A DNA stretch of 64,000 bases from Kiritimatiellia bacterium (lineage in GTDB: Bacteria; Verrucomicrobiota; Kiritimatiellia; RFP12; JAAYLN01). Under the pieces are notes generated by a model that saw only the letters and a program-made list of their open reading frames with translations, was not told where the DNA came from and ran no database searches. The stretch lies in the NCBI GenBank assembly GCA_017962605.1, contig JAGCUY010000038.1:350-64349 (forward strand), given 5' to 3'. The position numbers and the translations under genes were made by a program. Of the stretch, positions 2,033-48,194 are shown piece by piece. Positions within the stretch are counted from its first letter, which is position 1. Each line of letters begins with the position of its first letter.

Positions 2033-4477
2033 CTACCTCACGACAATCGTGAAGGCGTTGGGGGCGCGGCCGAGGAACTGCGAGGGGGCGAGGACGCCCT
2101 TGGAGACGCGCAGCGCGTCGAACTCCATCTGGATGTTCGGCTGGTCGTAGGTGCCCTCGCCAATCATCAGCCGGTGGCCGGCGACGCGCTTCCTGAAGCG
2201 GGGGAACGTATGCTTCTCCTTTGTCCCGCCGGTCTTCAGCTGCACCGGCACCGGCGAATGGTCGTAGAAGAACTGCACGAAGGAGTTCGTCGCGACAGCC
2301 GGATCCGGCTCGAAGGTGAGGGCGTAGTGGTGCCACCTGCCATCGACCGCGAGGCCGGACGGGACATCCCATCCGCCGTAGGTTCCGCTGCTGGCCATCT
2401 GAAGGGTATTCGAGGCATTGTTCTGCCGGTAGAAGTACCAGTCGTAGTTCGTGTTGTCAATCTGCGAGAGACGCAGGATCGGGGCGTGCTGGGTAAGCGT
2501 CTTTGAATCGGCGGCGACGGCGCCGCTCGCCTCTACGATGTCGTCGAACTTCGCCAAGAACTCGACCGTGTAGGCGTCCGCCTCGAAGAACGGGACATTG
2601 GTGACGACGACGCGGCTCGTGTCCAGGCGGGCGGACCACTCGTTCGCCGCCCGTTCCGTGCCGTTGGTGCCGTCGAGGAGGAGCGTCCCGCGCGACTCCT
2701 TGACGAAGGTCGGCACGTTGCCGTCGGTGCGCGCCTCGCCGACGCCGGTCACGTTGAGGGCCGCGTTTGACGTGCAGGTGAAATCGTAGTTCTGCTCGAA
2801 GAGGGCGAGCAGCGAGGTGTCGCCCGCGCCGACGGGATGCGTGGTGAGGAACTCATCAGGCGTCAGTGCGCGGCGCGTCACGCGAATGTCGTCCACCCAC
2901 CCATCAAACCATTGGCTGCTGTCGCCGGAACTATTTACGCTTGCGCCGAAGAAGATGGAATAACCGGTAGCGACGGCGGGCAATGTACCGCTTTGCGTCT
3001 TGTCGAGCATATAGTCGAAGTAGAAGTTCATGGCCTGCGCCGCGCCATCAACGACGACCGCCACATGATGCCACTTGCCGTCGTCCGCGTTCGAGTACTG
3101 CGATCCGAGGTACTGGTTCGCATTGCCCGTTCTGGGCACGTAAAGCAGATTCGAACCGGTTGCATTGAAAATCACATTGAAATACGGCGTCGCGCTGAAC
3201 TTCATCAAGACCTGGCGGTCGCTGGTTGTGCCACGCACCATGCTTCGCGTCTTGTAGAACATCTCGACGGTGTAGCTCGCATTCGCCCCATCGCTGCCGT
3301 AGAGCTTCCCTGAGATGTATTGCATCTGGACATAATTCGCCTTGCGGACGTCATTCGTCTCCTGGTAAAACGAGGCGGCATCCTCAACCCAAGTATCCGT
3401 TTCGGACTTGGAAGCCATAACGGCACCAGCTTTCGTCTCCTTGTCGAAGCGCGAAGCATCCGCGCCGCTAACGGTCTTGTATTCGACTTTCTGGGCGCCC
3501 GGTGCGCGCATGTCGGAGAGGTTTATGTTGTTTGCCAGAACGCCGAACTCGCCTGGATCGAACGAGACGCGGACGAGTTCGTCCGGGTCCATGTCGAGCG
3601 GCTGCATCCGCAGGAACTGGTCGGGCGTCAGCGCAGCGCTGGAGACGCGTACCTCGTCGATGAGGCCGGGGAAGCGGCGGTAGCCATAGCCGCTGTTGAC
3701 GTAGTCGTCGTAGCCGCCGATGTAAATGGAGTTGTTGCTGCCGTATGAAATGTTGCCGGTCTTGTCGAGGGTGTAGGTCTTGTCGAGGGTGTGATCGACG
3801 TAAAGCCGGACTTTCTCCCCGTCGTAGGTGTAGGCGACATGGTGCCACGCGCCATCGTTGACCTTGGCGGACGTCGCGCTGCCCTGATAGCGCACCGTCG
3901 CGCCGTTCACGGTGTTGATGCGGAAGGCAAGACCGCCTAAACCGGCACTTTCAGTGTCCAGATAGAGTGCCCATCTCTCGCTCGTGAAGCCAGTCCCATT
4001 TACGCTGGCGACGATGGGTCCGAAATTTTGGGCGACATCCAAACCACCCGTGGTGCAGATGTAGGCCTCGACGGTGAAGGCCGACGTGCAGCCGGAAAGG
4101 AGCGACGCGGTGTTGGTAACAATGAGGCAGCCGCCATAGTAGGCAAGGGTGCCGGAGCCGCTGCCTTTGGCGGTGGTGAACTTCATCGCGGCGCGATTGG
4201 TGCGCGTCGTGCCCGTGACGGGGTCGTAAACGGCGAGGCCGGCGAACGGCCGAGCGAATTTGGGCATGTATTCGCCGTTGGCGGTGGAGCGGGTTTTATC
4301 TGCGAGCGCGTAAGCGGTGGCGTCGGCGCCGGAGACGGAGCCGCCGATGCTGACGCCTGCGGCGGTCGTGCCGGGGTCGCACTCGTCGAAGTGCCACCAG
4401 GCGATGGTGTCGGCGGCGGCGGGGAACGCGAGCACGCCAGCGGCGATAATTGAAAGAATTGACTTTGTTGTCTTCAT
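2033..4477 (-). CDS. Secreted protein with three LamG/concanavalin-like lectin domains
   Basis: The real start is ATG 4477 (RBS AAGGAGA; signal peptide MKTTKSILSIIAAGVLAFPAAA). Three units are marked by GAWHHVAYTYDG.., GKWHHVAVVVDG.., GRWHHYALTFEP.. and by IDEVRVSSAALTPDQFL / VDDIRVTRRALTPDEFL / FDALRVSKGVLAPSQFL. The protein ends ...APNAFTIVVR. Confidence 0.85.
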   Translation of the reverse strand: MKTTKSILSIIAAGVLAFPAAADTIAWWHFDECDPGTTAAGVSIGGSVSGADATAYALADKTRSTANGEYMPKFARPFAGLAVYDPVTGTTRTNRAAMKFTTAKGSGSGTLAYYGGCLIVTNTASLLSGCTSAFTVEAYICTTGGLDVAQNFGPIVASVNGTGFTSERWALYLDTESAGLGGLAFRINTVNGATVRYQGSATSAKVNDGAWHHVAYTYDGEKVRLYVDHTLDKTYTLDKTGNISYGSNNSIYIGGYDDYVNSGYGYRRFPGLIDEVRVSSAALTPDQFLRMQPLDMDPDELVRVSFDPGEFGVLANNINLSDMRAPGAQKVEYKTVSGADASRFDKETKAGAVMASKSETDTWVEDAASFYQETNDVRKANYVQMQYISGKLYGSDGANASYTVEMFYKTRSMVRGTTSDRQVLMKFSATPYFNVIFNATGSNLLYVPRTGNANQYLGSQYSNADDGKWHHVAVVVDGAAQAMNFYFDYMLDKTQSGTLPAVATGYSIFFGASVNSSGDSSQWFDGWVDDIRVTRRALTPDEFLTTHPVGAGDTSLLALFEQNYDFTCTSNAALNVTGVGEARTDGNVPTFVKESRGTLLLDGTNGTERAANEWSARLDTSRVVVTNVPFFEADAYTVEFLAKFDDIVEASGAVAADSKTLTQHAPILRLSQIDNTNYDWYFYRQNNASNTLQMASSGTYGGWDVPSGLAVDGRWHHYALTFEPDPAVATNSFVQFFYDHSPVPVQLKTGGTKEKHTFPRFRKRVAGHRLMIGEGTYDQPNIQMEFDALRVSKGVLAPSQFLGRAPNAFTIVVR

Positions 4478-4502
4478 GGTCGTTTCTCCTTGGAATGTTT
4501 TT

Positions 4503-4537: not shown

Positions 4538-4549
4538 TTGATGCCAACT

Positions 4550-4578: not shown

Positions 4579-4607
4579 TGCGCGATGCGCAAAAACTTTC
4601 GTGCGAG

Positions 4608-5750
4608 TTACGCAGGAGCGACGGCGTTGCGCCAGTCGCGCAGGGAGAGGCCGGTGGCCTTCTTGAAGGCGCGGCGGAGGGAGGAGGCGTCCTCGTAGCC
4701 GCACTCGGCCGCGATGGACTCGATGGGCTGCTCGCGGATGAGCAGCAGGGTCTTGGCGTGTTCGACGCGGGCGGCAGCAATCTCCTCGCCGATTGAGCGC
4801 CCCGTGGCCTCGCGGAAGCGGTATTCGGCACCGCGCCGGCTGCCGCCGATCTCGCGGCATATTTCCGCCGGAGTTAGTCCGACGCCAGATGTTTCGCGGA
4901 TGCGCGCGACGGCCCGCCGCACCGCGCCGTCTCGCCGCTTGAACTTGATTGTCGAATTGCGCCGGACAATGTGGGCGGCGCCGAACTTCACGATGCGGGG
5001 CGCGCAGTTGCCTGACATCGCCTCGTCAAGCAATTGCGCGGCGAGGTAGCCCGACTGCTCGAAGTCCGGCATGACGCTGGTGAGGGTCGGGGTGGCGTGG
5101 CGGCAGATGAGGGTGTCGTTGTCGATGCCGATGACGGCGATCTCGTCGGGAACCTCTATCTGCTCCATGGCGCAGGCCTGGAGGACGAGGTCGGCGGAAA
5201 TGTCATTGGCGGCGAGGAGTCCACAGGGCGTGGGGAGGGCGCGAAGCCAAGGGCGAATAGATGCGAAGAACGCGGCGATGGAGTCGGGGCCGCCAGGCTC
5301 AAAAGAGGCGAAAGTCCCGCCGGCCTTGGCGGCTTCGGCGGCCATGACCTTTCGACGGCGGTCGGACCAATCGCGGGGGATAATGTTTCCAACGAAGGCG
5401 AAATTGCGGAAACCGAGGGAGATCAGTTCGTGGGCGGCGAGGGCGGCGGTTCCGGAGGAGTCGTGGACGACGGCCATGCTGGGGCGGCGGAAACGCTTTG
5501 GGTTTGCGTCACAATAGACGACAGGGGTGTCGCGGAAATCCGAGGCCCTGAAGCCGGGGGTGTCCATGACGGAGCGCTCCACGATGCAGCCGTCGGGGCG
5601 CCAGAAAGCTATGGCTTTGGCGACGGGGAGGGCGGTGAGGCCGTGTTCAATCACCTGGACGCGCCATCCCGCAGAGGCGGCATAGCGGTAGATGCCGGCA
5701 AGGCGCGTCCGCCAGAAACGCCATGGATATTGGAAATAGACGATGTTCAC
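4608..5750 (-). CDS. XylR-like regulator (periplasmic-binding-protein-like sugar-binding domain + AraC HTH)
   Basis: 380 aa. The N-terminal two-thirds resemble a LacI/PBP sugar-binding fold. The C-terminus ...IESIAAECGYEDASSLRRAFKKATGLSLRDWR is an AraC-type HTH. The start codon at 5750 is GTG. Confidence 0.8.
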   Translation of the reverse strand: MNIVYFQYPWRFWRTRLAGIYRYAASAGWRVQVIEHGLTALPVAKAIAFWRPDGCIVERSVMDTPGFRASDFRDTPVVYCDANPKRFRRPSMAVVHDSSGTAALAAHELISLGFRNFAFVGNIIPRDWSDRRRKVMAAEAAKAGGTFASFEPGGPDSIAAFFASIRPWLRALPTPCGLLAANDISADLVLQACAMEQIEVPDEIAVIGIDNDTLICRHATPTLTSVMPDFEQSGYLAAQLLDEAMSGNCAPRIVKFGAAHIVRRNSTIKFKRRDGAVRRAVARIRETSGVGLTPAEICREIGGSRRGAEYRFREATGRSIGEEIAAARVEHAKTLLLIREQPIESIAAECGYEDASSLRRAFKKATGLSLRDWRNAVAPA

Positions 5751-5790
5751 TGATTCCCATTTTACACCATGGGGAAAGCTACCGCAAGGA

Positions 5791-5834
5791 GGGGCGGGGA
5801 AAGGGGCTAGGGGCTAGGGACTAGGGGCTAGGGG
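5791..5834 (+). repeat. G-rich heptad array (GGGGCTA family) with G-quadruplex potential
   Basis: GGGG C GGGG AAA then GGGGCTA GGGGCTA GGGACTA GGGGCTA GGGG. There are seven G3-4 tracts with 1-4-nt loops on the plus strand, in the divergent region between the XylR-like gene and the ACT gene. Confidence 0.8.
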
Positions 5835-5844
5835 AGAAGGAGCG

Positions 5845-5978
5845 CGACATTCGACAACCGACAGCCGACGACCAAGACGACTAGCGACAAACGACAAACG
5901 CGACTTGAGAGACATCCCGGCTCCCGAATCCCGCTACCGGATGTCTTCCCGCGTGTCGCTTGTCGCATGTCGCTTGTC
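5845..5978. repeat. Nested imperfect palindrome built from CGACANN / NTGTCGC heptads
   Basis: The left arm is CGACATT CGACAAC CGACAGC CGACGAC ... ACAAACG ACAAACG CGAC (5845-5904). The inner hairpin is AGACATCCCGG / CCGGATGTCT (5910-5946). The right arm is GTGTCGC TTGTCGC ATGTCGC TTGTC (5953-5978). Confidence 0.7.
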
Positions 5979-6039
5979 ATAATGAATCACGGCTACCGGC
6001 GCGCGACATTATTATTGATCCAACGATTGGGCATTAGGC

Positions 6040-6068
6040 TTGACGGAAGCGGCGCAATTTGGGAGAAT
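6040..6068 (+). promoter_or_regulatory. Candidate promoter of the ACT-domain gene
   Basis: -35 TTGACG (6040-6045), a 17-nt spacer and -10 GAGAAT (6063-6068). The start codon is 47 nt downstream. Confidence 0.4.
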
Positions 6069-6114
6069 TGTCATCAGGAAATCCAAACCAAGCCGCAAAA
6101 GCAAGGAGACCGCT

Positions 6115-6549
6115 ATGACCATCAAGCAAATATCGCTGTTCCTGGAGAACAAGCCCGGACATCTCGCCACGATATGCCGGACGCTCGCCGACGCCAAGAT
6201 CAACATCGTCACCCTCTCGCTTGCCGACACACAGCAGTTCGGCATCGTGCGGCTGATCGTGGATGACTGCGACAAGGCCTGCGCCGCCCTCAAGGCCGCC
6301 GGGATGGTCGTCAACGTCCGCGACGTCCTCGCCGTTGGCGTCCGCGACGAACCTGGCGGCATGACCAATCTCCTCGCCATCATCGAGAAGGCCGGCGTGA
6401 ACATCGAATACATGTATGCCTTTGCGGCGCATGTCGGCAAGGAGGCTATCCTGGTCTTCCGATTTGACGACGCCGAAAAGGCCGACGCCGCACTCAAGGC
6501 CGCCGGCGTGCCCGTCCTCGCGCCAGCCGACGTGCTGAATCTGCACTAG
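6115..6549 (+). CDS. ACT-domain (small-ligand-binding) protein, two ACT repeats
   Basis: ATG 6115 is preceded by AAGGAGA. MTIKQISLFLENKPGHLATICRTLADAKINIVTLS... and a second ...VRDEPGGMTNLLAIIEKAGVNIEYMYAF... match tandem ACT folds. Confidence 0.75.
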   Translation: MTIKQISLFLENKPGHLATICRTLADAKINIVTLSLADTQQFGIVRLIVDDCDKACAALKAAGMVVNVRDVLAVGVRDEPGGMTNLLAIIEKAGVNIEYMYAFAAHVGKEAILVFRFDDAEKADAALKAAGVPVLAPADVLNLH

Positions 6550-7784
6550 CGGCCGCCATCCGGCGTCCACGGCGACAGGGGCACCACGCGGTGCTCCGTG
6601 CATGACACGCCCTCCATCGAGGGCGGAATTCCCTTTTCCCGCCAGCGGCGCAGCGCCTCAAGCGGCCTGCGAATCTCCTGAATCCCCTTGCCGCCGAAGT
6701 GCTCGCGCCCAGGCAGGAGAAATAGCTGGCAGAAACCCAGCGCCGCCTCAGGGCCGCCCAAGCGCGTGGCAAGACGGCTGTAGTAGTCAAGAGTGGCGCC
6801 GCAGGGAACGCATGAGTCCTGCGTTCCGGCATAGACGACCATCTTCCCTCCCCTGTCGCGGAAGGCGTCGAGATTCTCATCCTCGGCATCCAGCTCAGGC
6901 GCAAGGGCTGCGAAATAGCGGTCGTAGTCCGGGCCGAAGTCCAGGGCGGCGTAGTCCACATCCGGCCCGAAGGCCCAGTTGAAGAGGTAGAGGTTTGAGC
7001 GGGCGAGGTCGAAGCGCGCGGCCGGCGGGATGCCGTCGAAGATTTTTGCGCCTGTGACTGCGTGGCGAGGGCCTCTGAACAGTTCCTCCAGCGCGGCCAG
7101 ATGTTCGCAGCCAAGCGACGAATCGCGGCGCGCCGCGATGGCGATTGCATCGGCGATGGTCGTATCGTCCCAGCGCGGCGCGGACACGAAGCGGCCGACA
7201 GCGCCGGGGAATTTCTCACGCGGCGCGAAGGCATCCAAGGAGGCGGCGCGGATCACAGCCAACTGCTCCTTGGAGAAAAGCGGCGAACCATCCTGGCGGA
7301 GCGTCCGCTGCCAGTTCCAGAGGAAGTAGGCGTGGAGACGTGTCCGGCAGTGCGCTGGGACGCCGGCGAGGATGCCGTCGTAGTCCTCGGGATAGCGCTG
7401 CGCCTCGGAGAATGCCTGCTGGCCGCCGGTGGATGCGCCGACGAAATAGGAGAACTCCGGAGAGCGCCCGTATTTGGCCGAGACGCACTCCTTGGCGGCC
7501 AACGTCATCACATGGGTGGCGCGGTGGCCGAAGTCGCGGAGGACGTCCTGGTTCCGCCATCCGGCGAGGCGGGTGTCAGGTGCGGTGCCGAGGTCGGTCA
7601 TCGCCGCGGCGTAGCCCTGGCGGGCGTACGGAAGCAGGGCGTCGTCGCGGAGGACGCCTCCCGCGCCGCCGCTCCCTACGCCGACGAAGCGCCCGTTCCA
7701 TGCGGACGGCAACATGAGAAGGACGCCGACGCCGGACTGCGGCGAGGTTTCGACGCGGAATGAAATTCTCTCAATTGCGTCCAT
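6546..7784 (-). CDS. Tannase / feruloyl-esterase-family alpha/beta hydrolase
   Basis: ...FVGASTGGQQAFSEAQRYPEDYDGILAGVPA... carries the G-x-S-x-G nucleophile elbow in the context typical of this family. ATG is at 7784 (the track start 7790 is TTG). No signal peptide is seen. The gene overlaps the mfd stop by 14 nt. Confidence 0.7.
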   Translation of the reverse strand: MDAIERISFRVETSPQSGVGVLLMLPSAWNGRFVGVGSGGAGGVLRDDALLPYARQGYAAAMTDLGTAPDTRLAGWRNQDVLRDFGHRATHVMTLAAKECVSAKYGRSPEFSYFVGASTGGQQAFSEAQRYPEDYDGILAGVPAHCRTRLHAYFLWNWQRTLRQDGSPLFSKEQLAVIRAASLDAFAPREKFPGAVGRFVSAPRWDDTTIADAIAIAARRDSSLGCEHLAALEELFRGPRHAVTGAKIFDGIPPAARFDLARSNLYLFNWAFGPDVDYAALDFGPDYDRYFAALAPELDAEDENLDAFRDRGGKMVVYAGTQDSCVPCGATLDYYSRLATRLGGPEAALGFCQLFLLPGREHFGGKGIQEIRRPLEALRRWREKGIPPSMEGVSCTEHRVVPLSPWTPDGGR

Positions 7785-11052: not shown

Positions 11053-11122
11053 GCCCTTCTATAATAGCAAAAACCCCTTCTGCGGCAAAAAATCCCAAAA
11101 TTTAGTAGAATGGTTGTTCACC

Positions 11123-17867: not shown

Positions 17868-20800
17868 CTACCTCATCATCAGCACGAAGGGGTTGACCTT
17901 GCGCCAGGTGACGCGCACCATGGCGGGGCTTGTCGCGGCGTCGTAGGTGTAGGAAAGCGACTCGACGACCTGCGCGTTCGACCACTGCGTTCCATCCCAC
18001 TCCTCCAGCTTGTAGCCATTAGGGGCGTCGTTGCCCGCTTCAACAGAGAAGGTGTAGGTGCCCTCGACGGCGTATGCGCCGGGGGCGGGGGTGGCGGTGA
18101 CGTCGAGGTCGTCGCCAACGGCCACCACGACGTTCGTGAAGGCCAGTTCGCCGAAGTATCGGGCGCTATCGACCTGGCGGTTGCGGACAAGCTCCTCGTT
18201 CGCGAGCGGGCGGTCGTAATAGCGGTAGGACTTCACGGTGCCGGTGAACGCCTGCGCTCCGTTATTGCCGCCGGCGCCGAGATAGGTCACGGCGACGGTT
18301 GTGGGTTCGAGGCCGAATCCGGACGTGGGGAGTCGCGAGGGGTTCCTCCAGCGCGTCGTTGTCGCGGGCGGAATCTCGGTGCCGTAGAACGCGGCCATGT
18401 AGCCGTCGCCCATGATGCCGGTCGCGTAGGTGAGATTGGCACCGAGATCGAGGCACGGGTCGCAGCGGGAGTCCGCAGTGGTGCCGGAGAACCCATGCGC
18501 GGCGAGGTCGACCCAAGAGTTCTTGTTGTTGCTGACGAACGAGAACGAGCCCGCCTTGTTCCAGGCGCCGGAGGCCATGAACACGTAGCCGCGCGGGGTG
18601 TCTCCGTTGTCGAGAGAGCCGCCGTTGTTCAGAGAATTGCCAATGCCCTCAACGAGCGTCTGCTGCGTCGATTTCGGCGAGACGACGAACGCTACGTAAT
18701 TGCTGAAAAACGATCTGTTGGCGAACGTAAAGCCGTTGTCCGTCCAAGTGCTGTCGCCGAGCCACGTGCTGGCACCGCCTTTTTTGATAAAGGACATGTC
18801 CCAGCCGCCAAACGGCGCGGAGTTTGCCCACGCCTTGGAGAGGCACGAGAAGCGATTGGTGACGTCGGGCAGCTCCGCCCCGATGTTCTTGATGCCGTCG
18901 TAGTTCAGGACAAGGCCGCCCGCGACGTAGTCCGTGATGTCGTAGTCTGCGGCTGTGAAGAGGGCGCCGGCCGCCTTCCACTGCCACGTAAGGCGAACCT
19001 TGGCGGGAGAGGTGGCAACGACATACTCGAAGGAGAGGACGCCGTCGTGCAAAACCGGCGAGTCCCAGCAACCTTCGGAGGCGTTCCACGCCTCCAGCGT
19101 GTAGCCGGTGCAGGCGAACTCGATGCCGCGCGCGTCGGTGCGGGTGGCTGGGGCGGTGAAGGTGTAGGTGCCGGAAATCTCGTAGGGTCCGATCTTCTCG
19201 TTGCCGTCCATGCCGAGACGCGATGAAGTCACCAAGACGTTCGTCACGGGCATCACGCCGTGGAATCGGTAGTCGTCAACCATCCGGTTGTGCTCAAGTT
19301 CCGCATCGGTGAGGACGCGGCCGTAGAAGCGGAAACTCTGAAGCGTACCGGTGAACTTGCGCCCCGAATTGTCGACTATGCCACCGATGCCGAAGTCGGT
19401 GGCGTTTTGGACAATCGGCGGTCCGGCCGTAAAGTCGCGGCGTGACGCGAGGAATCCGTTTACCACTGTCTGCTCTGTCGGGACGGATGTTCCCATGAAG
19501 GCCGCGCCGAACGTGTCGGCGAGAACCGCCGTGCAGTAGCGGACGGGAAGGCCGCGGAACTGCCCAGGCTTGGGACGCGTGTTGGAGTCTCCATAGCCGT
19601 GGACGGTCCAGTCGAACCATTCGTTGTAATAACTCGTGTCGAGGTCCCTGCGGAGGGAAAGCGAGCCGGCCTTGTTGAATTCCACACCCATGGCGTAGTA
19701 GATGTATGCCTCGTTGGAGTCGCTGCTTCCGTTGTAGGCTTTCTGGCCAAGACCATTTGCATCCACGGCCACTTGGATCGTCTGGTTCGACGGCAGGGTG
19801 AATGCCGCGCCGGGATGGAAGTAGGACTGGCGCTCAAAATGGTAACCGTCGTCGCGCCACTCGCCAGGGTCGGCACCCTCGGTGTTGATGACCTGGAGCG
19901 TCATGTCCCAGCCGCCGGCAGGGGCGAGGTTCTTCCATGCGGTCATGTTACTACTATGCGGCTGGTCGGCGCCGAGGTTGCGGATGCCGTCGTAGTGGAG
20001 GAGAAGGCCGTCCTGCACATAGTCGGCGGTCGTGTAGCGCGTCACGATGCCGTCGCCGGCCGTCCACTGCCAGGTGATGCGAACCCGCGACGTTTCCGTC
20101 ACGGCGCAGGACAGGGAGCCGCTGTGGTCTTCCGGGGCGCCCCAGTCGCCGGTGGCATCGTCCCATGCTTCGAGCGTGTAGCCCGTGCAGGTGTAGGCAC
20201 GTCCATCAACCGTCTTCGAAGCAGGGGTGGAGAAGGTATAGCCGCTGGCATCGACCGCATAGGCACCGGCCTTCTCGTTGCCCGAAACGTTGGCAACCGC
20301 CGAGGCGATCACCGCATTCGTCACGGGAATTGCGGAAACAAGCTTGCCGAAGAAACGGGCGTCGTCAACGGCGCGGTTCCAGATGAGTTCATCGGTGGAG
20401 AGAACTTTGTTTGAATAAAGGCGAAAGCTCTTGATAGAGCCATTTAACGAATCAGAACCATTTGGTTGCCCACCAATTGCCCAGCTCCCCATAGTACGAG
20501 AAGGAAAGACAACATCCGTCTTGGTTGGATAACGCCCCGGCGTTGAAGTCGGTTCTTCAGTACCCGAAAAGGCCGCCGTGTAAGTTTCGTTGGCCAAAGC
20601 CGTAAGATACGAGAATTCAGTGCCGTTCCATTTGGGGCGGTCCGTCGTATATGCATGCGTGTTGTACCAAATCTGCTTTGTATTTTTATCACGGATTGAT
20701 ACAGACCATGTTTGCCAGTATGTGTTGTCGCTCCCCACCTGCCCTGGGAACCACACGTATCCAAGAGAACTTATATTAGCACACGTGGCATCCATCAGCA

Positions 20801-21143
20801 CTTGAGTCGTCTGCTTTCCAGGGACGACAAGATTACTGGACATCTCGCGGAATACCGTGCCGTTGTTGAACAGATAGCCATTATCAAGCCAATTCGTCGT
20901 GGCACCGCTTGTTTTCGCGTAGAAGGACAAGTCATGCGTCCCAGGGTTTGCAAGGTTCACCCACGTTGTCGTTGTCATGGAGTGCGGCTGGTCGATGCCA
21001 ACATTGCGGATGCCGTCATAGTTCAGCACAAGGCCCTCCTGCACATACGAGTCGGCGTCGTAGTTGCCCGTAGTCCAATACTTGACGCCGGCGTGGGCGG
21101 AGGCGGCGGCGAGGGCGCAGAGCGCGAGGGCGAGTTTCTTCAT
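17868..21143 (-). CDS. Secreted protein of three ~350-aa modules (jelly-roll/LamG-like + InlB-B-repeat-like)
   Basis: The start is ATG 21143 (signal peptide MKKLALALCALAAASAHA). Each module opens with YVQEGLVLNYDGIRNVG / YVQDGLLLHYDGIRNLG / YVAGGLVLNYDGIKNIG. Each closes with SFRLYSNKVLSTDELIWNRAVDDARFFG-type and CTGYTLEAW...TWQW-type segments. The protein ends ...KVNPFVLMMR. Confidence 0.85.
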   Translation of the reverse strand: MKKLALALCALAAASAHAGVKYWTTGNYDADSYVQEGLVLNYDGIRNVGIDQPHSMTTTTWVNLANPGTHDLSFYAKTSGATTNWLDNGYLFNNGTVFREMSSNLVVPGKQTTQVLMDATCANISSLGYVWFPGQVGSDNTYWQTWSVSIRDKNTKQIWYNTHAYTTDRPKWNGTEFSYLTALANETYTAAFSGTEEPTSTPGRYPTKTDVVFPSRTMGSWAIGGQPNGSDSLNGSIKSFRLYSNKVLSTDELIWNRAVDDARFFGKLVSAIPVTNAVIASAVANVSGNEKAGAYAVDASGYTFSTPASKTVDGRAYTCTGYTLEAWDDATGDWGAPEDHSGSLSCAVTETSRVRITWQWTAGDGIVTRYTTADYVQDGLLLHYDGIRNLGADQPHSSNMTAWKNLAPAGGWDMTLQVINTEGADPGEWRDDGYHFERQSYFHPGAAFTLPSNQTIQVAVDANGLGQKAYNGSSDSNEAYIYYAMGVEFNKAGSLSLRRDLDTSYYNEWFDWTVHGYGDSNTRPKPGQFRGLPVRYCTAVLADTFGAAFMGTSVPTEQTVVNGFLASRRDFTAGPPIVQNATDFGIGGIVDNSGRKFTGTLQSFRFYGRVLTDAELEHNRMVDDYRFHGVMPVTNVLVTSSRLGMDGNEKIGPYEISGTYTFTAPATRTDARGIEFACTGYTLEAWNASEGCWDSPVLHDGVLSFEYVVATSPAKVRLTWQWKAAGALFTAADYDITDYVAGGLVLNYDGIKNIGAELPDVTNRFSCLSKAWANSAPFGGWDMSFIKKGGASTWLGDSTWTDNGFTFANRSFFSNYVAFVVSPKSTQQTLVEGIGNSLNNGGSLDNGDTPRGYVFMASGAWNKAGSFSFVSNNKNSWVDLAAHGFSGTTADSRCDPCLDLGANLTYATGIMGDGYMAAFYGTEIPPATTTRWRNPSRLPTSGFGLEPTTVAVTYLGAGGNNGAQAFTGTVKSYRYYDRPLANEELVRNRQVDSARYFGELAFTNVVVAVGDDLDVTATPAPGAYAVEGTYTFSVEAGNDAPNGYKLEEWDGTQWSNAQVVESLSYTYDAATSPAMVRVTWRKVNPFVLMMR

Positions 21144-21189: not shown

Positions 21190-22446
21190 TCACACGACCT
21201 CGCGGATGTCTATTATTATACACCACTGGCAAACCCAAAAGTTATACAATTTGGAAAAATAATATTTCGCGTGTTCCTTCCGCCATTGGCGCATCGAGAC
21301 GCCATATCGGCGAGTGAACAGTTTGTGGAGGGCGATTTCCGAACGAAAGCCGCATTGGAAGTAGATCGCGCCTATGGGCACGTCTGGGCGCGCGAGAAGC
21401 GACAGCACTCGCTCCAGGCGGACATGCAAAATCTCGTCAAGAACCGAATGCCCCATCGCCTCGCGGAAGCGTAGGTCAAAGAGGCGGCGGGTGCCGGGGA
21501 AACGCGCGGCGAGTTTTTCCGCCGTGAGGCCGTCGCACGCCTCGGTGCGAATCATCTCAACGGCCTTGGCGACGCTCGGCTCGCGCCGGCCTCTACCGCG
21601 CGTGGAGTCGCGCCGCGTCACCATCAGCGGGCCAATGGAAACGGAAGTGGCCAATGCATTCCCAAGCATCTTCGCCGCTTCGTAGCCGAAGCGCTCGAAG
21701 TCAAGCCGGACGCTAGTCACAGATGGCGCAGGAGGCTTCCACTTCTGCTCGATGTCGTTTACCCCGACGAAGGTGAGATCATGCGGAACGAGGCGGTGTT
21801 CCTCGATGGCGAAGCCGGACACGTCGGCGGCGGTGAGGTCTGTGGCGCAGAATACGCCGCAGCGTGGCGGCAGTCCACGCACGAAGTCGTGTAGGCGCGA
21901 AACGCGCTCCGCATCCGACTCCCTGCGATACTGGAATGGGAAGAAGGGCAGCTTGGCCTCTCGGGCCAAGAAGGCAAAGGCCGAACCGCGCTCCCGAGAC
22001 CAGAGGCGGTTCCAGCGGCCGCCAATGAAGGCGAGCGCTTCCGGATTGCCCGACATCAGTTCGCGAAAGGCGAAGCGTGCGATTTCCGCGTTATCCATCA
22101 CCACGCGCGCTACGCCCTGCCGGCACAGTTCCCGCGATGGATCGACATATACAACGGGAATTTTCCCAAACAGGCGCGGCGAAGGATTCAGGCGGCCGCC
22201 AGAGTTCACAACACATCCAAGCGGATGGAGGCGGCGCAGCGTCTCACGCAGGGCGGAGGTCAGCTGCGCCTCATCTATTGTCACCTCAAGGGCCTTCCAC
22301 CCATGCGCAGCAGCATGGCGACGCACTCCCGCCATCTCGGCGGCGACACTCCGCGCTTCAAAATGCGTCGAATGCAAATACAGGATGCCGTTGAAGGGAG
22401 CATCCCTTCTTTTTCCATCATCCTGAATCAAACGGCGGGTGGTCAC
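21190..22446 (-). CDS. XylR-like regulator (sugar-binding domain + AraC HTH), second copy
   Basis: The N-terminus GILYLHS..AAHGWKALEV aligns with NIVYFQY..ASAGWRVQVI of the first copy. The AraC HTH is ...FQCGFRSEIALHKLFTRRYGVSMRQWRK. The GTG start overlaps the aconitase stop (GTGA). Confidence 0.8.
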   Translation of the reverse strand: MTTRRLIQDDGKRRDAPFNGILYLHSTHFEARSVAAEMAGVRRHAAAHGWKALEVTIDEAQLTSALRETLRRLHPLGCVVNSGGRLNPSPRLFGKIPVVYVDPSRELCRQGVARVVMDNAEIARFAFRELMSGNPEALAFIGGRWNRLWSRERGSAFAFLAREAKLPFFPFQYRRESDAERVSRLHDFVRGLPPRCGVFCATDLTAADVSGFAIEEHRLVPHDLTFVGVNDIEQKWKPPAPSVTSVRLDFERFGYEAAKMLGNALATSVSIGPLMVTRRDSTRGRGRREPSVAKAVEMIRTEACDGLTAEKLAARFPGTRRLFDLRFREAMGHSVLDEILHVRLERVLSLLARPDVPIGAIYFQCGFRSEIALHKLFTRRYGVSMRQWRKEHAKYYFSKLYNFWVCQWCIIIDIREVV

Positions 22447-30003: not shown

Positions 30004-30005
30004 GG

Positions 30006-30299
30006 TTAGACAATCGTAAAGATCGAGCTCATTCCGGTAATGTCGAAGACGCTCTGCACTGTGGGGTTTGGATGGGCGACTGTCATCTTGCCGCCACAGG
30101 CCATCATCGCCTTCTGCGCAGTCATCAGGATGCGCAGGCCGGCGGATGAGATGTATTCGAGCTCGGCGAAATCGAAGTTGACTTCCATGATGCCGTCGAG
30201 TTTGAGTTCGGCCTCGAGATCGGGCGCGGTGTTGGTGTCGAGTCGGCCGCCCACCTTCAGCGTGAGCGCGTTGCCATTAAGTTGCTTTTCTATGTTCAT
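30006..30299 (-). CDS. STAS-domain anti-sigma-factor antagonist (RsbV/SpoIIAA-like)
   Basis: MNIEKQLNGNALTLKVGGRLDTNTAPDLE...FAELEYISSAGLRIL has the conserved phosphorylatable Ser context. The start is ATG 30299. Confidence 0.85.
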   Translation of the reverse strand: MNIEKQLNGNALTLKVGGRLDTNTAPDLEAELKLDGIMEVNFDFAELEYISSAGLRILMTAQKAMMACGGKMTVAHPNPTVQSVFDITGMSSIFTIV

Positions 30300-30374
30300 T
30301 GTTTTTCCACCGCGCATATTCTAGCAAAAACGCGGCGACGGCGCGTGATTGGCAAAAAAAGAAACCCTTCCACA

Positions 30375-34325: not shown

Positions 34326-34365
34326 CCGACTGCCGATTACCGGCTACCGGCTGCCGATTGCCGCC
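34326..34365. repeat. Heptad array spanning the stop codon of paralogue 2
   Basis: CCGACTG CCGATTA CCGGCTA CCGGCTG CCGATTG CCGCC. The stop (TAA, 34337-34339) lies inside unit 2, and the array encodes the C-terminal ...RRQSAAGSR. Confidence 0.75.
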
Positions 34366-37755: not shown

Positions 37756-37760
37756 CGTCT

Positions 37761-40490
37761 TTAGAGCATGATGATCATTGTGTGCGGCTTTGACTGGCAC
37801 TCGTAGCAGCCAATGTCAATGGCCTTGCCAAACACACGCGGCTTGCCCGCAAGATCGACAGACGGAATGACAGAAGGATCAACGCCCTTGTCATAAAGCG
37901 CCCCGCCAGTTTTCGGACGGAAATCGCCATTCACGAAGTTGTTGAAAATATTATTCACGGATGCGACTGTGCAATACTGGTTGAACGCCACGTCGTCCAT
38001 GACGCAATTGACGACGTTCATATGAGACTCAAAGTTCACCGAGGTGTATTTTCCTGCTACGGTCTCGTAGTTCCCGGCGAAGACCGTGTTGCGGATCGTA
38101 GTAGTCCAGGAGTTGCAGAATGAGCCGGCAGACGATGATGTGATTTCGCCGTCAACGGTGTTCGCCACGACTGTGCAGTTTTCGACCACGGCCTGCTCAT
38201 TACCACCGCCGAAGCGGATGCCGGCCGCTCCGCGCTTGTCGCTCGCCGATGGCACGTAGGTGTTGTAGGCGACAAGCGTGTTGTACATCTTGCCCTTCGA
38301 CCCGTAGGGGAAGAACACCGCGCCGCCAGCATAGGCGTCCGAGGAAGACGTGCCGGTCACAAGGTTGTTCGAGACGACGCAGTGGGTGAGAATGCTTGTC
38401 CCGGCAGATCCGGCGATTTCCACACCGGCGCCAGCGGCGTTGCCGCCATCCGCAACGGCGAGGCCGCCGCGTATGACGCAGTTGGAGACAACGCCGGCCG
38501 CAATGCGCAGGTTGCCGCCATACTGGTTCCTCACGCAGCCGTTTGCGATTGTCAGGTTCTCAACGCGGGCGTCGGCGTTGTTCACCTCCATCGTGCGGTG
38601 GTAGTAGGTGTCGGGCGTGGCGACTGTGTTGCTGACAACAACCGCGTCGGGCGTGGCGCCAAGGCCGCGGATGGTGATGGCCTTGTTGAAGGAAATCTGG
38701 TCACTTGTCGAGTGGACGCCCTCGCCGAGAAGCAGCGTGTATCCATCAAGTGAGGCCTGGACGGCCGTCTTGAGGTTGCCGTAGCCCTTTTCCGGTGTGT
38801 CGTAGGGGAAGATGCCGCTTGCAACGTTTCCGGGTGTCACATACACTGTGGACGAAGCCACGCGCGCGTAGCCATCGTATGTCATTTCCGCGTATTCATC
38901 CTCGCACTCGTTCGTCGCGGCAATCTTTACGGTGTAAATGCCGGGCGCCGAGTAGGCGTGTGATATCGTCAGGGCTGAAGTTGATTCCTCGGCAGAGCCG
39001 TCGCCGAAATCGTAGGTGAAGACAATGTTCTCGGGCGAGGCCGAATTGTCGGTCGAGTGCGTGAATGTGACCGTTGCCGGAGCGAAGGTCTGGCTGTAGG
39101 TGGCGCCGTCGATGTGGACGATCATGTCCGGCTTCTGGAACTCATAGCAGCCAATGTCGATGGTGCCGCTCGTGCGCAGCTTGCCGTCGAGGTCCGTCGT
39201 TGAAGCGGACGCGCCGCGCGGGTCGGCGACGCCTGCGTCAAGTAGCGCGGAGCCGGACGCCGGACGGTAGTCGCCGTTCTCGTAGTCGGTGAAGTCTTCT
39301 TCTGTAATGGTTATCACGCCGAAATCACCGTCCGTCACGATGCGGGCGGAGTTAGATGAGGCACAGCCATAAAACTCAGCTGATGCGTTGTTCGGCAGGT
39401 TGCCGCTCCATTCGCTTTCGTTCCCGAAGATGACCACGTTGAAGAAGTGCTGGTTGTTGTTCCAGGCCCAGCAACCGTAGTTCTCGTTGCTCACAATGGT
39501 GGAGCTGTAGAGGTAGGCCGTGCCGGTCATCAGGACGCCGCCGCAATGGCTCCCCACGACAAGGCAGTCCTCGGCGATGGCCGTCGAGGAACCAAGCGCG
39601 AGGCTGCCGCCGTTGTTGTCATGCGTGTCCGATCCTCCGACGAGCCGGCAGCGCGACATCTTCGCCGTCGAGTCCATATAGACGTTCGCGCCCTTCTTGT
39701 CGTTGGCCTGGACGGTGCCGTTGGAAATAACGCAATCGACCATCTGCCCGCCGCCGTTCATGCGGACGTTGCCACCGTCGTTGAGCGCCGTGCCACCATA
39801 GATGACGCAATTGGAGACGATGCCGCCATACTGGTAGATGTTGCCGCCGATGTTGTCGTCACAGATGCCGCCATAAATGGTGCAGTTGCGAACCGTGCCG
39901 TTATCAAGATAGACATTGCCGCCACGCTTGTGGGTGGAGCCACCGTAGATTTCACAGTCATCAACGACCGCAGCGGAATTGTTCACGTAGAGGTTGCCGC
40001 CTGCGGTATTGCCGTTAGCCTTGGCCGTGCCGTCGCGGACGACGCAGTTCGTGAGGGTGCCACCAGACATCTCAATGGCGCCGCCCTTGTCGGCCTGCCA
40101 GGTGCCTTCACCAACGATGGTGACATTTTCAAGCCACGAACCAGCGGCCATGCGGAGGGTGCGGTATTCGCCGTGAGATTCAAGGACGACATCCGCGCGC
40201 GTTGCGCCTTCCCCAATGAGCTTGGCCTTGAGGTTCGGCCCCCACTTCGCATTGTCCGTCTGGGCGACATAGTCGGGATAGCCGGTTTGGTATGTTCCCG
40301 CCGCGACATGGATGACATCACTGCTGTTTGTAGCAGTGATAATCGCCTTGTCTACCGTCGCGAAGGGAGCTTCGGCGGAGGTGCCGGCGTTGTTGTCGTC
40401 ACCAGTGGTGGCGACATAGTAATCTGCCGCGAATGCGGCGGTGGACGCGGCCACGGCGAACGCCGCCAGTGGCAGGATGCATTGCTTCAT
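37761..40490 (-). CDS. Secreted right-handed parallel beta-helix protein with PKD-like insert
   Basis: The signal peptide is MKQCILPLAAFAVAASTAAFA. ADYYVATTGDDNNAGTSAEAPFATVDKAI is a DUF1565-like helix start. There are many GGN(V/I/L)Y-type rungs, a PKD-like unit (...TYDFGDGS...YSAPGIYTVKIAATN) and two IDIGCYE cap motifs. The protein ends ...SKPHTMIIML. Confidence 0.85.
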   Translation of the reverse strand: MKQCILPLAAFAVAASTAAFAADYYVATTGDDNNAGTSAEAPFATVDKAIITATNSSDVIHVAAGTYQTGYPDYVAQTDNAKWGPNLKAKLIGEGATRADVVLESHGEYRTLRMAAGSWLENVTIVGEGTWQADKGGAIEMSGGTLTNCVVRDGTAKANGNTAGGNLYVNNSAAVVDDCEIYGGSTHKRGGNVYLDNGTVRNCTIYGGICDDNIGGNIYQYGGIVSNCVIYGGTALNDGGNVRMNGGGQMVDCVISNGTVQANDKKGANVYMDSTAKMSRCRLVGGSDTHDNNGGSLALGSSTAIAEDCLVVGSHCGGVLMTGTAYLYSSTIVSNENYGCWAWNNNQHFFNVVIFGNESEWSGNLPNNASAEFYGCASSNSARIVTDGDFGVITITEEDFTDYENGDYRPASGSALLDAGVADPRGASASTTDLDGKLRTSGTIDIGCYEFQKPDMIVHIDGATYSQTFAPATVTFTHSTDNSASPENIVFTYDFGDGSAEESTSALTISHAYSAPGIYTVKIAATNECEDEYAEMTYDGYARVASSTVYVTPGNVASGIFPYDTPEKGYGNLKTAVQASLDGYTLLLGEGVHSTSDQISFNKAITIRGLGATPDAVVVSNTVATPDTYYHRTMEVNNADARVENLTIANGCVRNQYGGNLRIAAGVVSNCVIRGGLAVADGGNAAGAGVEIAGSAGTSILTHCVVSNNLVTGTSSSDAYAGGAVFFPYGSKGKMYNTLVAYNTYVPSASDKRGAAGIRFGGGNEQAVVENCTVVANTVDGEITSSSAGSFCNSWTTTIRNTVFAGNYETVAGKYTSVNFESHMNVVNCVMDDVAFNQYCTVASVNNIFNNFVNGDFRPKTGGALYDKGVDPSVIPSVDLAGKPRVFGKAIDIGCYECQSKPHTMIIML

Positions 40491-46042: not shown

Positions 46043-46091
46043 TGAGATTCCACTGATGGTTCCCAGACTTATGCTAATGCCGGTTTCTTGC

Positions 46092-48194
46092 CTACCTCAT
46101 TATTACCATGGTGAACGGAGGCGCTTCAAGGCACTCGTAGCAGCCGATGTCCGGCGCGGCGCCGAACACGCGCGCGTTTCCGAAAAGGTCGATCGCAGAC
46201 GCCATCCAGCCTTCCGTTCTCCCCGCGTCGACGCAGGGCGAGGTCGGTTTCAGCGAGTAGTCGCCGCCAGCGGCGTTTTTGAACTTTGGGTTCGCAACGA
46301 AGCAACCGTTGGCCACCATCATGTGTTCCGTTGCGCCGGGCCACGAAAGGCAGTTGAGCCAGGTGCCGAAATCGTCTGACCAGTCGCGGTCGGCTTCCGA
46401 TCCGTTCGTCTTGTTGTCCGCCAGGACCGTGTTGACGATACGGCCCCCCCAGCTCTGGCAGAGGCCACCTCCGGCGTAGTCCTCGTCCGTTCGGTTCGCG
46501 GCGACGGTGCAGTTGGCCACTTCCCAGGCGTTCGACGAGGCGCAGTAGAGCGCACCGCCCTGTCGTCCGGAATGGTTCCCCGCGAAGAAGGAATTGCGGA
46601 TGGTGAAGGGCGTCGCGTTGTCATCCGGGATTTCCTTAAGGTAAACGGCGCCTCCCATGTAGGCGGAGGTGTTGTTCGTGAAAACGCAGCGTTCAAACGT
46701 CGCGAATACGGGCGTCGTGTCATTCGGCGCGGTGGCGATGGCGCCGCCATATCTCCCGTAGTTGCCCGCGAAAACGCAATTTGTGGAGGCACAACGACCG
46801 CCTGTCGCCTGGGCGCGGAGCATCACGGCACCGCCAACAGCCGATGTAGCGGCGCGGTTACCTTCGAATAGGCAACTGTCGAGCGTGAGTTTCGCCGAGC
46901 CAATCAGGTAGATTCCACCGCCGCCGCGCAGATTCGAGCCCTTGGCAACCGTGTTGGAGACGAACGTGCAGTTCACGAATGAGGCATCGGCTCCGGCGCT
47001 TCTGATATACGCCGCGCCGCCACCGGCCTCGTCGGCCTTGTTGGCATCGAAAAGGCAATTCTCAACGCGCAACGCCCCGAGGATGTAGAGTGCGCCGCCA
47101 CCATAGACGTCGCCACTGCCGCTCACGGAATTGCGCAGGAAGCGGCAGTCGGTGATAAGACCTCCGCTCGCTCCGATTTGGATTGCCCCGCCTGCTTGTT
47201 TGACGATGTTGTCTGAAAATTCACAGTCGGCCACAAAGGGATTGGCTCCTTCAAGCATAACCGTCGCGGAGCCGTTTTCGGAGGCGTTGCCCGAGACGAT
47301 GCAGTTTGTCATGCAGAAATTGTCCTTGGGCGTATAAACCGCGCCGCCCGTGCTGGTGTCCGTCTGGACATTGCCACGAATGGTGCAGCCCTCGATGTAG
47401 CCCACGCCGGCGACGCCCGCGAACCGGACGGCCGTGTTCGTCTGCACAGTGCAGTCGATAAGTCGCCCAAGGCCGGAGAATGTCCCGTTCGCCTCGTCGG
47501 CCATGACAGGCGCGGCGTATTTGGCCGTCGCCGTGTTGCCCTGAATTAGGCATTTGCGTGCCGTCGCGTTCGTTGCGCAGAAGGTTATGCCACAGCCATG
47601 ATAGCCAGCGGCGTTGTTGCTTATGACGCAATCGACGAGCAAGGCACCTTCGCTCAAAAGCGTCACACCCGCAGCCTTTCCCTTGTAATTCGTGCCTGAA
47701 TAGGCGTTTGTGCATCCGCGCACGATGCAGTTCGTGACGATGGTCGGAATATTGTGTCCAGCTGTCCCAATGGCGATTCCACCCGCGCTACCTGTTTGGC
47801 CGGTTGTGTTGGATGTGACGCCTCTCTGCAAGGTGATGCCATCCACCGTGACTGCGCCATTGGCAATCATAACTTTGAAGGCACCGTGGGCATCAAGGAC
47901 TACATCTTCGGGATTCCCCGTTGAGCCGCGAACGATGACGCGACGCGATTCGGATGTGCCCGCCGTCATCCTGAGAGTGTCGGAAAGGGTATAGACACCC
48001 GGCGCGATGACGATTTCCCCGGCGGTGTTCTTGTTGTGCAGCTGTTCGAATGCCTTTGCGGGCGTGGCGAATGGCGCCGCCGCACTCGTGCCATCGTTGT
48101 CATCGCTGCCAGATGGCGCAACATAGTATGTGGCCGCAGACGCCCCGATGGCGCAAAGCGCGGACAAGAGAACTGCTGACTTCGTTATGTTCAT
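46092..48194 (-). CDS. Secreted beta-helix protein with Pmp-like GGA(I/V/L) repeats
   Basis: The signal peptide is MNITKSAVLLSALCAIGASA, followed by TYYVAPSGSDDNDGTSAAAPFATPAKAF. There are at least 9 rungs of type GGAVY / GGAIQ / GGALY / GGAAY / GGGIY / GGAVM / GGAIA. A DIGCYEC cap is present. The protein ends ...EAPPFTMVIMR. Confidence 0.85.
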   Translation of the reverse strand: MNITKSAVLLSALCAIGASAATYYVAPSGSDDNDGTSAAAPFATPAKAFEQLHNKNTAGEIVIAPGVYTLSDTLRMTAGTSESRRVIVRGSTGNPEDVVLDAHGAFKVMIANGAVTVDGITLQRGVTSNTTGQTGSAGGIAIGTAGHNIPTIVTNCIVRGCTNAYSGTNYKGKAAGVTLLSEGALLVDCVISNNAAGYHGCGITFCATNATARKCLIQGNTATAKYAAPVMADEANGTFSGLGRLIDCTVQTNTAVRFAGVAGVGYIEGCTIRGNVQTDTSTGGAVYTPKDNFCMTNCIVSGNASENGSATVMLEGANPFVADCEFSDNIVKQAGGAIQIGASGGLITDCRFLRNSVSGSGDVYGGGALYILGALRVENCLFDANKADEAGGGAAYIRSAGADASFVNCTFVSNTVAKGSNLRGGGGIYLIGSAKLTLDSCLFEGNRAATSAVGGAVMLRAQATGGRCASTNCVFAGNYGRYGGAIATAPNDTTPVFATFERCVFTNNTSAYMGGAVYLKEIPDDNATPFTIRNSFFAGNHSGRQGGALYCASSNAWEVANCTVAANRTDEDYAGGGLCQSWGGRIVNTVLADNKTNGSEADRDWSDDFGTWLNCLSWPGATEHMMVANGCFVANPKFKNAAGGDYSLKPTSPCVDAGRTEGWMASAIDLFGNARVFGAAPDIGCYECLEAPPFTMVIMR

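Follow-up and report, generated by a model that had tools for sequence, protein, structure and literature searches.

Four large secreted proteins encoded in a 64,000-nucleotide stretch of DNA from a Kiritimatiellia bacterium (GenBank assembly GCA_017962605.1, contig JAGCUY010000038.1, positions 350 to 64,349; hereafter, the window) end in the same kind of short hydrophobic tail, which always occupies the last seven or eight residues of the protein. The tail is specific to the C-terminus, is carried by unrelated folds, is conserved as a pattern, goes together with export, belongs to one bacterial lineage and is left unpacked in models of the monomers. Apparently, this real and robust feature has not been described before, and it has the look of a portable C-terminal sorting signal that is so reduced that its recognition must work differently. 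We favor, with a probability of roughly 55%, the reading that it serves, in this lineage only, as a short linear tag for sorting or docking: a strand that would be bound by an envelope receptor, with the cell surface as its presumed destination.

Translation of the four genes, all on the minus strand, confirms the preliminary description of this DNA, according to which their ends are alike. Gene A (2033..4477) encodes an 814-residue secreted protein with three LamG_3 domains (Pfam Laminin_G_3, 3.8e-40) and the C-terminus ..GRAPNAFTIVVR, in which the tail AFTIVVR (2036..2056) is followed by a TAG stop (2033-2035). Gene B (17868..21143) encodes a 1,091-residue secreted protein ending in ..RKVNPFVLMMR, with the tail PFVLMMR (17871..17891) again before TAG. 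Like its relatives, protein B is built of three tandem modules of ~360 amino acids, each consisting of a LamG-like domain that starts with DYVQDGLxxxYDGIRN and an immunoglobulin-like domain that ends in VR(L/V)TW (VRLTWxW in the family); its LamG match in Pfam is weak, and its relatives reach 3,113 amino acids (P0346). Gene C (37761..40490) encodes a 909-residue secreted β-helix/PKD protein (Pfam PKD) that ends in ..CYECQSKPHTMIIML; its tail, HTMIIML (37764..37784), precedes a TAA stop and closes with Leu, which is rare at this position. Finally, gene D (46092..48194) encodes a 700-residue secreted right-handed β-helix with a polysaccharide-lyase-like fold (Pfam Beta_helix and PMP repeats) that ends in ..CYECLEAPPFTMVIMR, with the tail PFTMVIMR (46095..46118) before TAG. 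Foldseek neighbors of the D model are PL6 lyases, Pel9A, and GH136. Both C and D carry a choice-of-anchor Q domain (NF041518, cut-off 25) as a cap just before the tail, at residues 859-899 of 909 in C (37794..37916; 44.5 bits) and at residues 646-687 of 700 in D (46134..46259; 32.7 bits). By eye, a Sec-type signal peptide can be recognized at the start of each of the proteins A through D, in keeping with the earlier claim that the four are signal-peptide proteins; in A, the predicted Sec signal peptide, MKTTKSILSIIAAGVLAFPAAA (4412..4477), was called by eye and by a crude hydrophobicity rule.

The tail is strongly tied to the ends of proteins. The regular expression proposed in the preliminary description, [FH][TV][ILMV]{3,5}[RL], has no internal match in 19,421 residues and ends 4 of the 47 window open reading frames (ORFs; a greedily chosen set), which corresponds to a binomial p of ~1e-12. 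The claim that no other coding sequence of the window ends in this way is thereby borne out, the nearest miss being a cytoplasmic STAS protein (30006-30317) that ends in ..SIFTIV. To go beyond the window, we used 46 loci from species-representative genomes, which were fetched with a LamG alignment and in which ORFs were called. A broader tail expression, whose internal match rate is 7.6e-4, ends 49 of 354 genes in the Kiritimatiellae-type loci and 1 of 89 genes in the loci that had been assigned to other taxa (those from Bacteroidales and Armatimonadetes, plus L034 and L036, whose matched genes later proved to be tail-bearing). Among neighbor genes that had not been used to find the loci, 10 of 313 have the tail vs 0.24 expected (p = 1e-13), a roughly 40-fold excess. 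In a further 65 metagenome loci, the tail is present in 58 of 231 genes. Even when only the sampled loci are counted, at least five to six tails occur in each of three metagenome-assembled genomes (MAGs).

Tail-bearing genes are also associated with export. In the fetched loci, the odds ratio between the tail and a crude signal-peptide call is 5.2 (p = 2e-6), and about 78% of the full-length tail proteins are signal-peptide positive by the same crude predictor; tail genes that lack such a call are mostly truncated or over-extended ORFs. Conversely, of 115 proteins with a crude signal-peptide call in these loci, which are biased toward LamG genes, 28 bear the tail. Of the checks that had been suggested, enrichment at C-termini and a tie to signal-peptide status both came out positive in the loci sampled. 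Export as such does not imply a tail: no tail was found on the exported glycoside hydrolases that adjoin the carriers (GH5, GH127+GH5, GH2, and GH109-like) or on any member of two neighboring signal-peptide-bearing families without a Pfam match.

Across 248 distinct tails, the consensus is [G>P,A]-[L/F/T/M]-Φ4-[R>K,Q,H]-COOH, where Φ is a hydrophobic residue, placed 2-6 residues past the last folded domain. Specifically, position -7 is Gly in 70% of the tails (Pro 8%, Ala 7%, His 3%), position -6 is Leu, Phe, Thr, or Met, positions -5 to -2 are Ile, Leu, Val, Met, or Phe, and the last position is Arg in 70% (Lys 11%, Gln 5%, His 4%, Tyr 3%; Asn and, rarely, Leu or Phe also occur), so that Arg or Lys closes 81% of the tails. 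The hydrophobic residues form a contiguous run of five to six, mostly β-branched, and positions -8 and -9 are frequently Pro, Lys, or Ser. The consensus read from the window alone, (P/A)-(F/H)-(T/V) followed by four to five of Ile, Leu, Met, or Val and a terminal Arg or Leu, therefore needs to be amended. The family has Gly where the window proteins have Phe, His, Ala, or Pro, which represent a minority, and the last residue varies more widely, the Leu of protein C being within the range of the family.

The same pattern is retained within each protein family. In the A family, 23-24 of 26 homologues of the last LamG domain end in ..LDPSQFLGR-x(2-4)-G-Φ5-R, and the tail is retained by orthologues of A from many gut Kiritimatiellae MAGs. 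The representative library holds 721 clusters of the B family (E<=0.001); after clustering at 50% identity, the ending ..VRLTWxW-x(2-5)-G-Φ5-R was found in 106 of 150 representatives under a strict definition and in 121 under a loose one. In the D family, 62 of 120 homologues stop 11-14 residues past the cap motif D[IM]GCYE with P-x-[G/H]-[T/L/F]-Φ4-[R...], and His occupies position -7 in 10 of the D-family tails. The residues themselves are free to change: a D orthologue that is 78% identical (P0002) ends in PQGTCVFIR where D has PPFTMVIMR. Comparison of the sequences thus indicates that the tail is conserved as a pattern and not as a sequence, which is how signal-like sequences evolve. Loss of the tail from orthologues had been named as a result that would count against a tag; the orthologues of A just mentioned and the D orthologue P0002 keep the pattern.

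The range of carriers is broad. Within the window, Pfam and NCBIfam assign LamG_3 (A), a weak LamG (B), PKD with choice-of-anchor Q (C), and Beta_helix/PMP with choice-of-anchor Q (D), in agreement with the earlier statement that unrelated folds bear the tail. Overall, at least six fold types carry it, including LamG_3, DUF2341 with LamG, β-helices (Pel9A-like, DUF1565) with choice-of-anchor Q, PKD, InlB-repeat, Flg_new_2 with LamG, and BspA-type LRR_5 proteins, in addition to several proteins without a Pfam match. These are typical cell-surface or adhesin-type architectures. The presence of the tail on such different folds, together with the persistence of the pattern among homologues of A, B, and D, upholds the view that it is a portable module. 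In locus L050, one LamG-tail gene appears to be split into two ORFs (8668-9918 and 10001-11116) by a frameshift, as a pseudogene or through an assembly error, next to an intact paralogue (4791-7292).

The position of the tail in choice-of-anchor Q proteins may point to its role. This family precedes alternative anchors, as verified on homologues: in P0026, the domain is followed by a sorting domain of the type A type IX secretion system (T9SS; 28.5 bits, our positive control), in P0061 by a GC-type dockerin (a weak match, below the curated cut-off), and in P0078, as read by eye, by a PEP-CTERM-like end with a hydrophobic stretch and RRRRA ~120 residues past the cap. Further choice-of-anchor Q homologues have PEP-CTERM-like or dockerin-like ends, again as read by eye. 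The tail-bearing members, of which C and D score above the cut-off, end 12-13 residues past the model. Since alternative anchors follow choice-of-anchor Q in other phyla, the tail therefore sits in the sorting or anchoring slot. The NF041518 model itself stops 10-13 residues before the stop codon, so that the tail is not modeled, and this short distance agrees with the earlier remark that in two proteins the tail closely follows the helix cap. The tail also occurs on proteins without choice-of-anchor Q (A, B, and the leucine-rich-repeat proteins).

We also considered whether the tail belongs to the fold that it follows. The AlphaFold2 model of D (35-sequence alignment) shows a confident β-helix with a mean predicted local distance difference test score (pLDDT) of 90, whereas its last 10 residues are coil with a mean pLDDT of 65. 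In the model of the last 199 amino acids of A, which cover the last LamG domain, tail residues 192-199 are coil with pLDDT <50. The structure prediction that had been suggested as a check thus gives an unpacked tail in both folds modeled. Furthermore, Armatimonadetes LamG homologues stop exactly at the domain boundary (..PRALSPDEIAALARE) and have no tail. On these two results, we reject the tail as the last structural strand. In the internal module junctions of B, a Gly is found at the equivalent offset and the hydrophobic run is absent.

At the level of DNA, A, B, and D do end in (G/A)TG AGG TAG, as previously noted. However, the suggestion that AGG is a property of the tail did not hold: in the related loci, rare last Arg codons are equally common in Arg-ending genes without the tail (AGG in 8 of 45 and AGA in 7 of 45, vs 8% and 3.5% internally), and the codon point consequently lends no support to a sorting tag. 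Within the tail codons, information is present only at position 2, where T specifies hydrophobic residues, and positions 1 and 3 are free; the tail is therefore not a nucleotide element. Together with the rare Arg codons of non-tail genes, this rules out RTG AGG TAG as a nucleotide-level signal. With or without the tail, Arg-ending genes in loci L004-L049 show a strong excess of AGG, AGA, and CGA as the codon before the stop. TAG stops are mildly enriched in tail genes (23 of 46 vs 68 of 273, p = 0.001). Readthrough past the stop of A is ruled out by a GC-rich hairpin 24 nucleotides after the stop, and protein A therefore ends there.

To place the tail among known signals, we compared it with several systems. 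Tripartite C-terminal sorting signals can be judged by the seven criteria of Haft (bioRxiv 10.1101/2023.06.07.544157). The tail shares with these signals (PEP-CTERM/exosortase, LPXTG/sortase, GlyGly-CTERM/rhombosortase, and MYXO-CTERM/myxosortase) the location at the extreme C-terminus, the large number per genome, the otherwise non-homologous signal-peptide carriers, and the order of signature, hydrophobic run, and basic residue (criteria 1, 2, 6, and 7). It differs from them in that the run of 5-6 residues is not a transmembrane helix, that one terminal residue takes the place of a cluster of 2-5 basic residues, and that no motif of three invariant residues exists, only Gly at -7 and Arg at -1 standing out (70% each); it thus lacks the signature motif, the transmembrane-length segment, and the basic cluster of such signals. 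In addition, an intramembrane sortase-type enzyme would be unable to hold such a tail in the membrane. This agrees with the preliminary description, which had set the tail apart from PEP-CTERM, LPXTG, and GlyGly-CTERM. In one tail-bearing MAG, locus L010 encodes a protein (7016-7513) with a classical PEP-CTERM end (..VPEPTSGLLSLFGLAALALRRRKRV). An exosortase-type system thus probably coexists with the tail in this MAG, and the tail is therefore a separate signal and not a degenerate PEP-CTERM.

The T9SS C-terminal domain (CTD; type A, TIGR04183/PF18962) shares with the tail its kinds of cargo (choice-of-anchor Q β-helices, BspA-type leucine-rich-repeat proteins, and LamG proteins) and, as P0026 illustrates, its position; its last strand also ends in a short hydrophobic run and Lys or Arg (..NKLILLR in P0072, ..KKIMLLK in P0047). 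However, the CTD is a folded β-sandwich of ~70-100 residues, and the tail consists of seven or eight unstructured residues. Neither A through D nor the tail-bearing homologues match TIGR04183 or PF18962, whereas the P0026 control does, so the earlier statement that the tail is no T9SS CTD is upheld. T9SS is known from Bacteroidota and related bacteria of the Fibrobacterota-Chlorobiota-Bacteroidota group and is not known from the Planctomycetota-Verrucomicrobiota-Chlamydiota bacteria. No T9SS machinery (SprA, PorV, or PorU) turned up in the loci examined, which were not searched for it specifically.

Another likeness is found in short motifs that are bound by a soluble receptor at a free C-terminus, such as the eukaryotic peroxisomal targeting signal PTS1 (-SKL, read by Pex5), the KDEL signal, and the ligands of PDZ domains. 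Like the tail, these consist of few residues, are portable, and are invisible to domain models, and their carboxylate is co-recognized, a point that bears on the tail by analogy only; they belong to another kingdom or compartment and have a different chemistry. No bacterial system of the PTS1/KDEL type that leads from the periplasm to the surface is known. The β-signal of outer-membrane proteins (polar-x-G-x-x-hydrophobic-x-hydrophobic, recognized by Omp85/BamA), which is read by strand pairing, is likewise C-terminal and strand-forming, with a Gly about six residues before the last hydrophobic residue. That signal, however, forms the closing strand of a barrel, has alternating hydrophobic residues, and finishes with an aromatic residue. 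The tail has an unbroken hydrophobic run with Arg at the end (Tyr in only 3% of cases) and is borne by soluble multidomain proteins with β-helix and LamG folds. The fetched loci contain no outer-membrane barrel of the tail-bearing lineage for comparison.

Two other signals could be set aside. A type 1 secretion signal, which spans ~50 amino acids on RTX cargo without a Sec peptide, is ruled out by the Sec-type signal peptides of A through D and most homologues. The class III prepilin signal G|FTLIE is ruled out as well, since the tail is C-terminal, has no Glu at +5, and has only five hydrophobic residues after the Gly vs ~20; the likeness of ..G-F-T-L-(I/F)-V-R to a prepilin peptidase site is superficial and has the wrong topology, the active site of that peptidase facing the cytoplasm. 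No model in Pfam or NCBIfam (release 20, June 2026) covers the tail, and our literature search found no paper that links Kiritimatiell* with a sorting signal or describes the tail.

The window belongs to an 82-kb scaffold from a ruminant gastro-intestinal metagenome, and its housekeeping proteins cluster at 90% identity or more with proteins named Kiritimatiellae bacterium. The MAGs with tail-bearing loci derive from the rumen, hindgut, and human gut and are labeled Kiritimatiellae/Kiritimatiellaeota, “Verrucomicrobia bacterium” (taken here to be an older, coarser label), or, in one case, Lentisphaerae. Within the fetched loci, the tail was not found in Bacteroidales loci or in Armatimonadetes LamG homologues.

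On the sorting or docking tag reading, the tail would start with a hinge residue, mostly Gly and more rarely Pro, Ala, or His, continue with 5-6 hydrophobic residues, and close with the free carboxylate of an Arg, which Lys, Gln, or His replaces in a minority of tails. It would mark a subset of Sec-exported proteins, namely large glycan-binding proteins that are non-enzymatic or lyase-like. After export by Sec, a dedicated receptor in the envelope would recognize the C-terminal carboxylate and the Arg, take up the unstructured tail as an additional β-strand, and deliver or tether the cargo at the outer membrane or cell surface. The tail would thereby take the role that the T9SS CTD, PEP-CTERM, or dockerin plays in homologues from other phyla, and the tail-less exported neighbors (GH5, GH127, GH2, and GH109) would stay periplasmic. 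The preliminary description had proposed a sorting tag; its checkable parts are supported, and from them we infer the sorting function itself. In a stronger form, to which we give somewhat less than even odds, gut Kiritimatiellae may possess a new sorting pathway in which the G-Φ5-R-COOH strand suffices by itself to direct Sec-exported glycan-binding proteins out of the periplasm to the surface via a dedicated candidate receptor or translocator. By analogy, and with the same reserve, such a pathway might be a bacterial equivalent of PTS1 and KDEL signaling and might, in the Kiritimatiellae, do the work of T9SS or exosortase.

Several points weigh against the tag reading. The signal-peptide calls are crude, and the motif is too short for a hidden Markov model (HMM), so that a genome-wide count is an extrapolation from LamG-biased loci. 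The last residue of the tail is not strictly basic. The AlphaFold2 models are monomeric, and packing of the tail in an oligomer remains compatible with them. No receptor, protease, or transporter for the tail was found in the window or among recurrent neighbors. Finally, some carriers are in-frame fusions in which an extracytoplasmic function (ECF) sigma domain and a transmembrane helix precede the tail protein; some carriers may thus be tethered at the inner membrane. Such tethering would suit docking or regulation in the periplasm no less than surface export and keeps the docking and regulatory readings alive.

The sigma fusions occur in several independent assemblies (L005 621-3881, L013 8963-12181, and L014 7304-10591; also P0224 and P0310). 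They are laid out as ECF sigma regions 2 and 4, one transmembrane helix, a low-complexity linker, a signal-peptide-like segment with a Met, a LamG- or B-type ectodomain, and the tail. Such proteins could be single-chain transmembrane sigma sensors, or an internal start could be used.

Among the alternatives, the one that survives best, although we consider it unlikely, is that the tail is a docking strand for assembly, that is, a donor β-strand that inserts into a scaffold or a neighboring subunit and so builds multi-protein complexes for glycan capture, periplasmic or surface-bound. Cohesin-dockerin pairs and the C-terminal donor strands of type V pili provide models for such docking. The all-hydrophobic run, rich in β-branched residues and held between Gly/Pro and Arg “gatekeepers”, is what docking would call for, as are the linker of only 2-6 residues and a tail that is free in monomer models; moreover, a dockerin occupies the same slot in planctomycete-type homologues, and glycoside hydrolase genes lie next to those of the carriers, which are binding modules and lyase-like proteins. 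However, ~1.2 Mb of loci contain no candidate scaffold with repeated acceptor domains, and a non-alternating hydrophobic strand would be unusual as the edge strand of a sandwich. Assembly docking also gives no reason for the use of the tail by a single lineage on so many unrelated folds, except if the scaffold is confined to that lineage too.

Two further explanations are somewhat less probable than assembly docking. The first is a minimal anchor at the membrane interface, in which five hydrophobic residues are immersed in one leaflet, be it of the outer or the inner membrane, and the Arg and carboxylate lie at the head groups, without any machinery. A hydrophobic run with a single basic residue does resemble a miniature of the tripartite design of transmembrane helix plus Arg by Haft's criteria, and with so short a linker the last domain would rest on the membrane. 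Yet 5-6 residues, which often include Thr, Ser, or Cys, provide little partitioning energy and no helix that spans a leaflet, the Gly at -7 and the β-branched composition point to a protein-bound strand, and a terminal Gln, His, Asn, or Tyr is hard to reconcile with snorkelling.

The second, at similarly long odds, is a quality-control or regulatory signal that is read by a periplasmic protease or PDZ sensor (Prc/CtpA, DegS/DegP class), either for turnover of cargo that is mislocalised or for triggering the fused ECF sigma factors. Free hydrophobic C-termini are classical ligands of periplasmic PDZ proteases, and a hydrophobic tail suits this general picture; in the fusions of ECF sigma domain, transmembrane helix, and ectodomain, P0224 and P0310 among them, a C-terminal signal could gate regulated proteolysis. 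On the other hand, PDZ ligands normally end in a hydrophobic residue, whereas 81% of the tails end in Arg or Lys. A degron on so sizeable a share of exported proteins (28 of 115 crude calls, in LamG-biased loci) would be costly, and the anchor slot of the choice-of-anchor Q proteins would be left unexplained.

Least probable by far, and largely refuted, is a trivial resemblance, in which the tail is no more than the final structural β-strand of the respective domain or the translation of a DNA element located where genes end: its strand-like composition, the identical last nine nucleotides of three of the four window genes, and the Gly at the equivalent offset in the internal junctions of B would fit, but AlphaFold2 places the tail outside both folds, Armatimonadetes LamG homologues end tail-less at the domain boundary, the junctions of B lack the hydrophobic run, the tail codons carry information only at position 2 and share their AGG bias with non-tail genes, and the enrichment statistics speak against chance.

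If the address-label reading is true, a single regular expression would predict the surface glycan-capturing proteome of abundant, uncultured bacteria of the herbivore and human gut. A diderm bacterium would then sort exported proteins by seven residues, which would imply a recognition machine new to bacteria, and the tail would be a handle for finding it. The motif also marks a blind spot of annotation, as it is too short for Pfam and NCBIfam HMMs, and hundreds of tail-bearing protein clusters are unlabeled. Given a host, the tag could serve for the display or retention of heterologous proteins.

The tail genes lie in polysaccharide-utilization-like clusters. In the window, a gene for an AraC-family regulator with a Peripla_BP_3 sugar-binding domain (Pfam) lies directly upstream of A (4608..5750, minus strand), and a second one directly upstream of B (21190..22446, minus strand). 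This regulator family adjoins the LamG-tail gene in 16 related loci and thus forms a conserved regulator-cargo pair. An all-against-all clustering of 445 ORFs from 47 loci gave as recurrent neighbors only AraC regulators, glycoside hydrolases, GFO/IDH oxidoreductases, RND pumps, and signal-peptide-bearing families without a Pfam match. In agreement with the preliminary description, no plausible processing enzyme is present among the window genes. Neither the window nor the fetched loci contain a gene for an exosortase, sortase, rhombosortase, or CPBP protease, and two long contigs yielded no candidate processing enzyme or receptor.

Other features of the window lie close to the tail genes. Two paralogous ATPases of the PF01637 (ATPase_2)/AAA_14 type, which end in ..(V/I)TLDDLF.., flank D (41832-43268 and 48478-50046), and members of the same family lie beside tail-gene clusters elsewhere (L050 13936-15345 and L052 13768-16546). 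Directly downstream of C, on the minus strand, are three tandem paralogues without a Pfam match (32225-34270, 34337-35830, and 35929-37800), whose family is also present in L011, L015, and L023. The window further contains a transfer-messenger RNA (tmRNA) gene (617-975, minus strand) with the tag peptide ANNDFAMAA, adjoined by a PIN-domain (VapC-like) gene (1206-1634). A partner-switching module (27209-30317, minus strand) comprises a SpoIIE-type phosphatase fused to a HATPase_c_2 kinase domain (27209-29326), a probable solute-binding protein, judged from its N-terminus (29323-30003), and the STAS protein (30006-30317).

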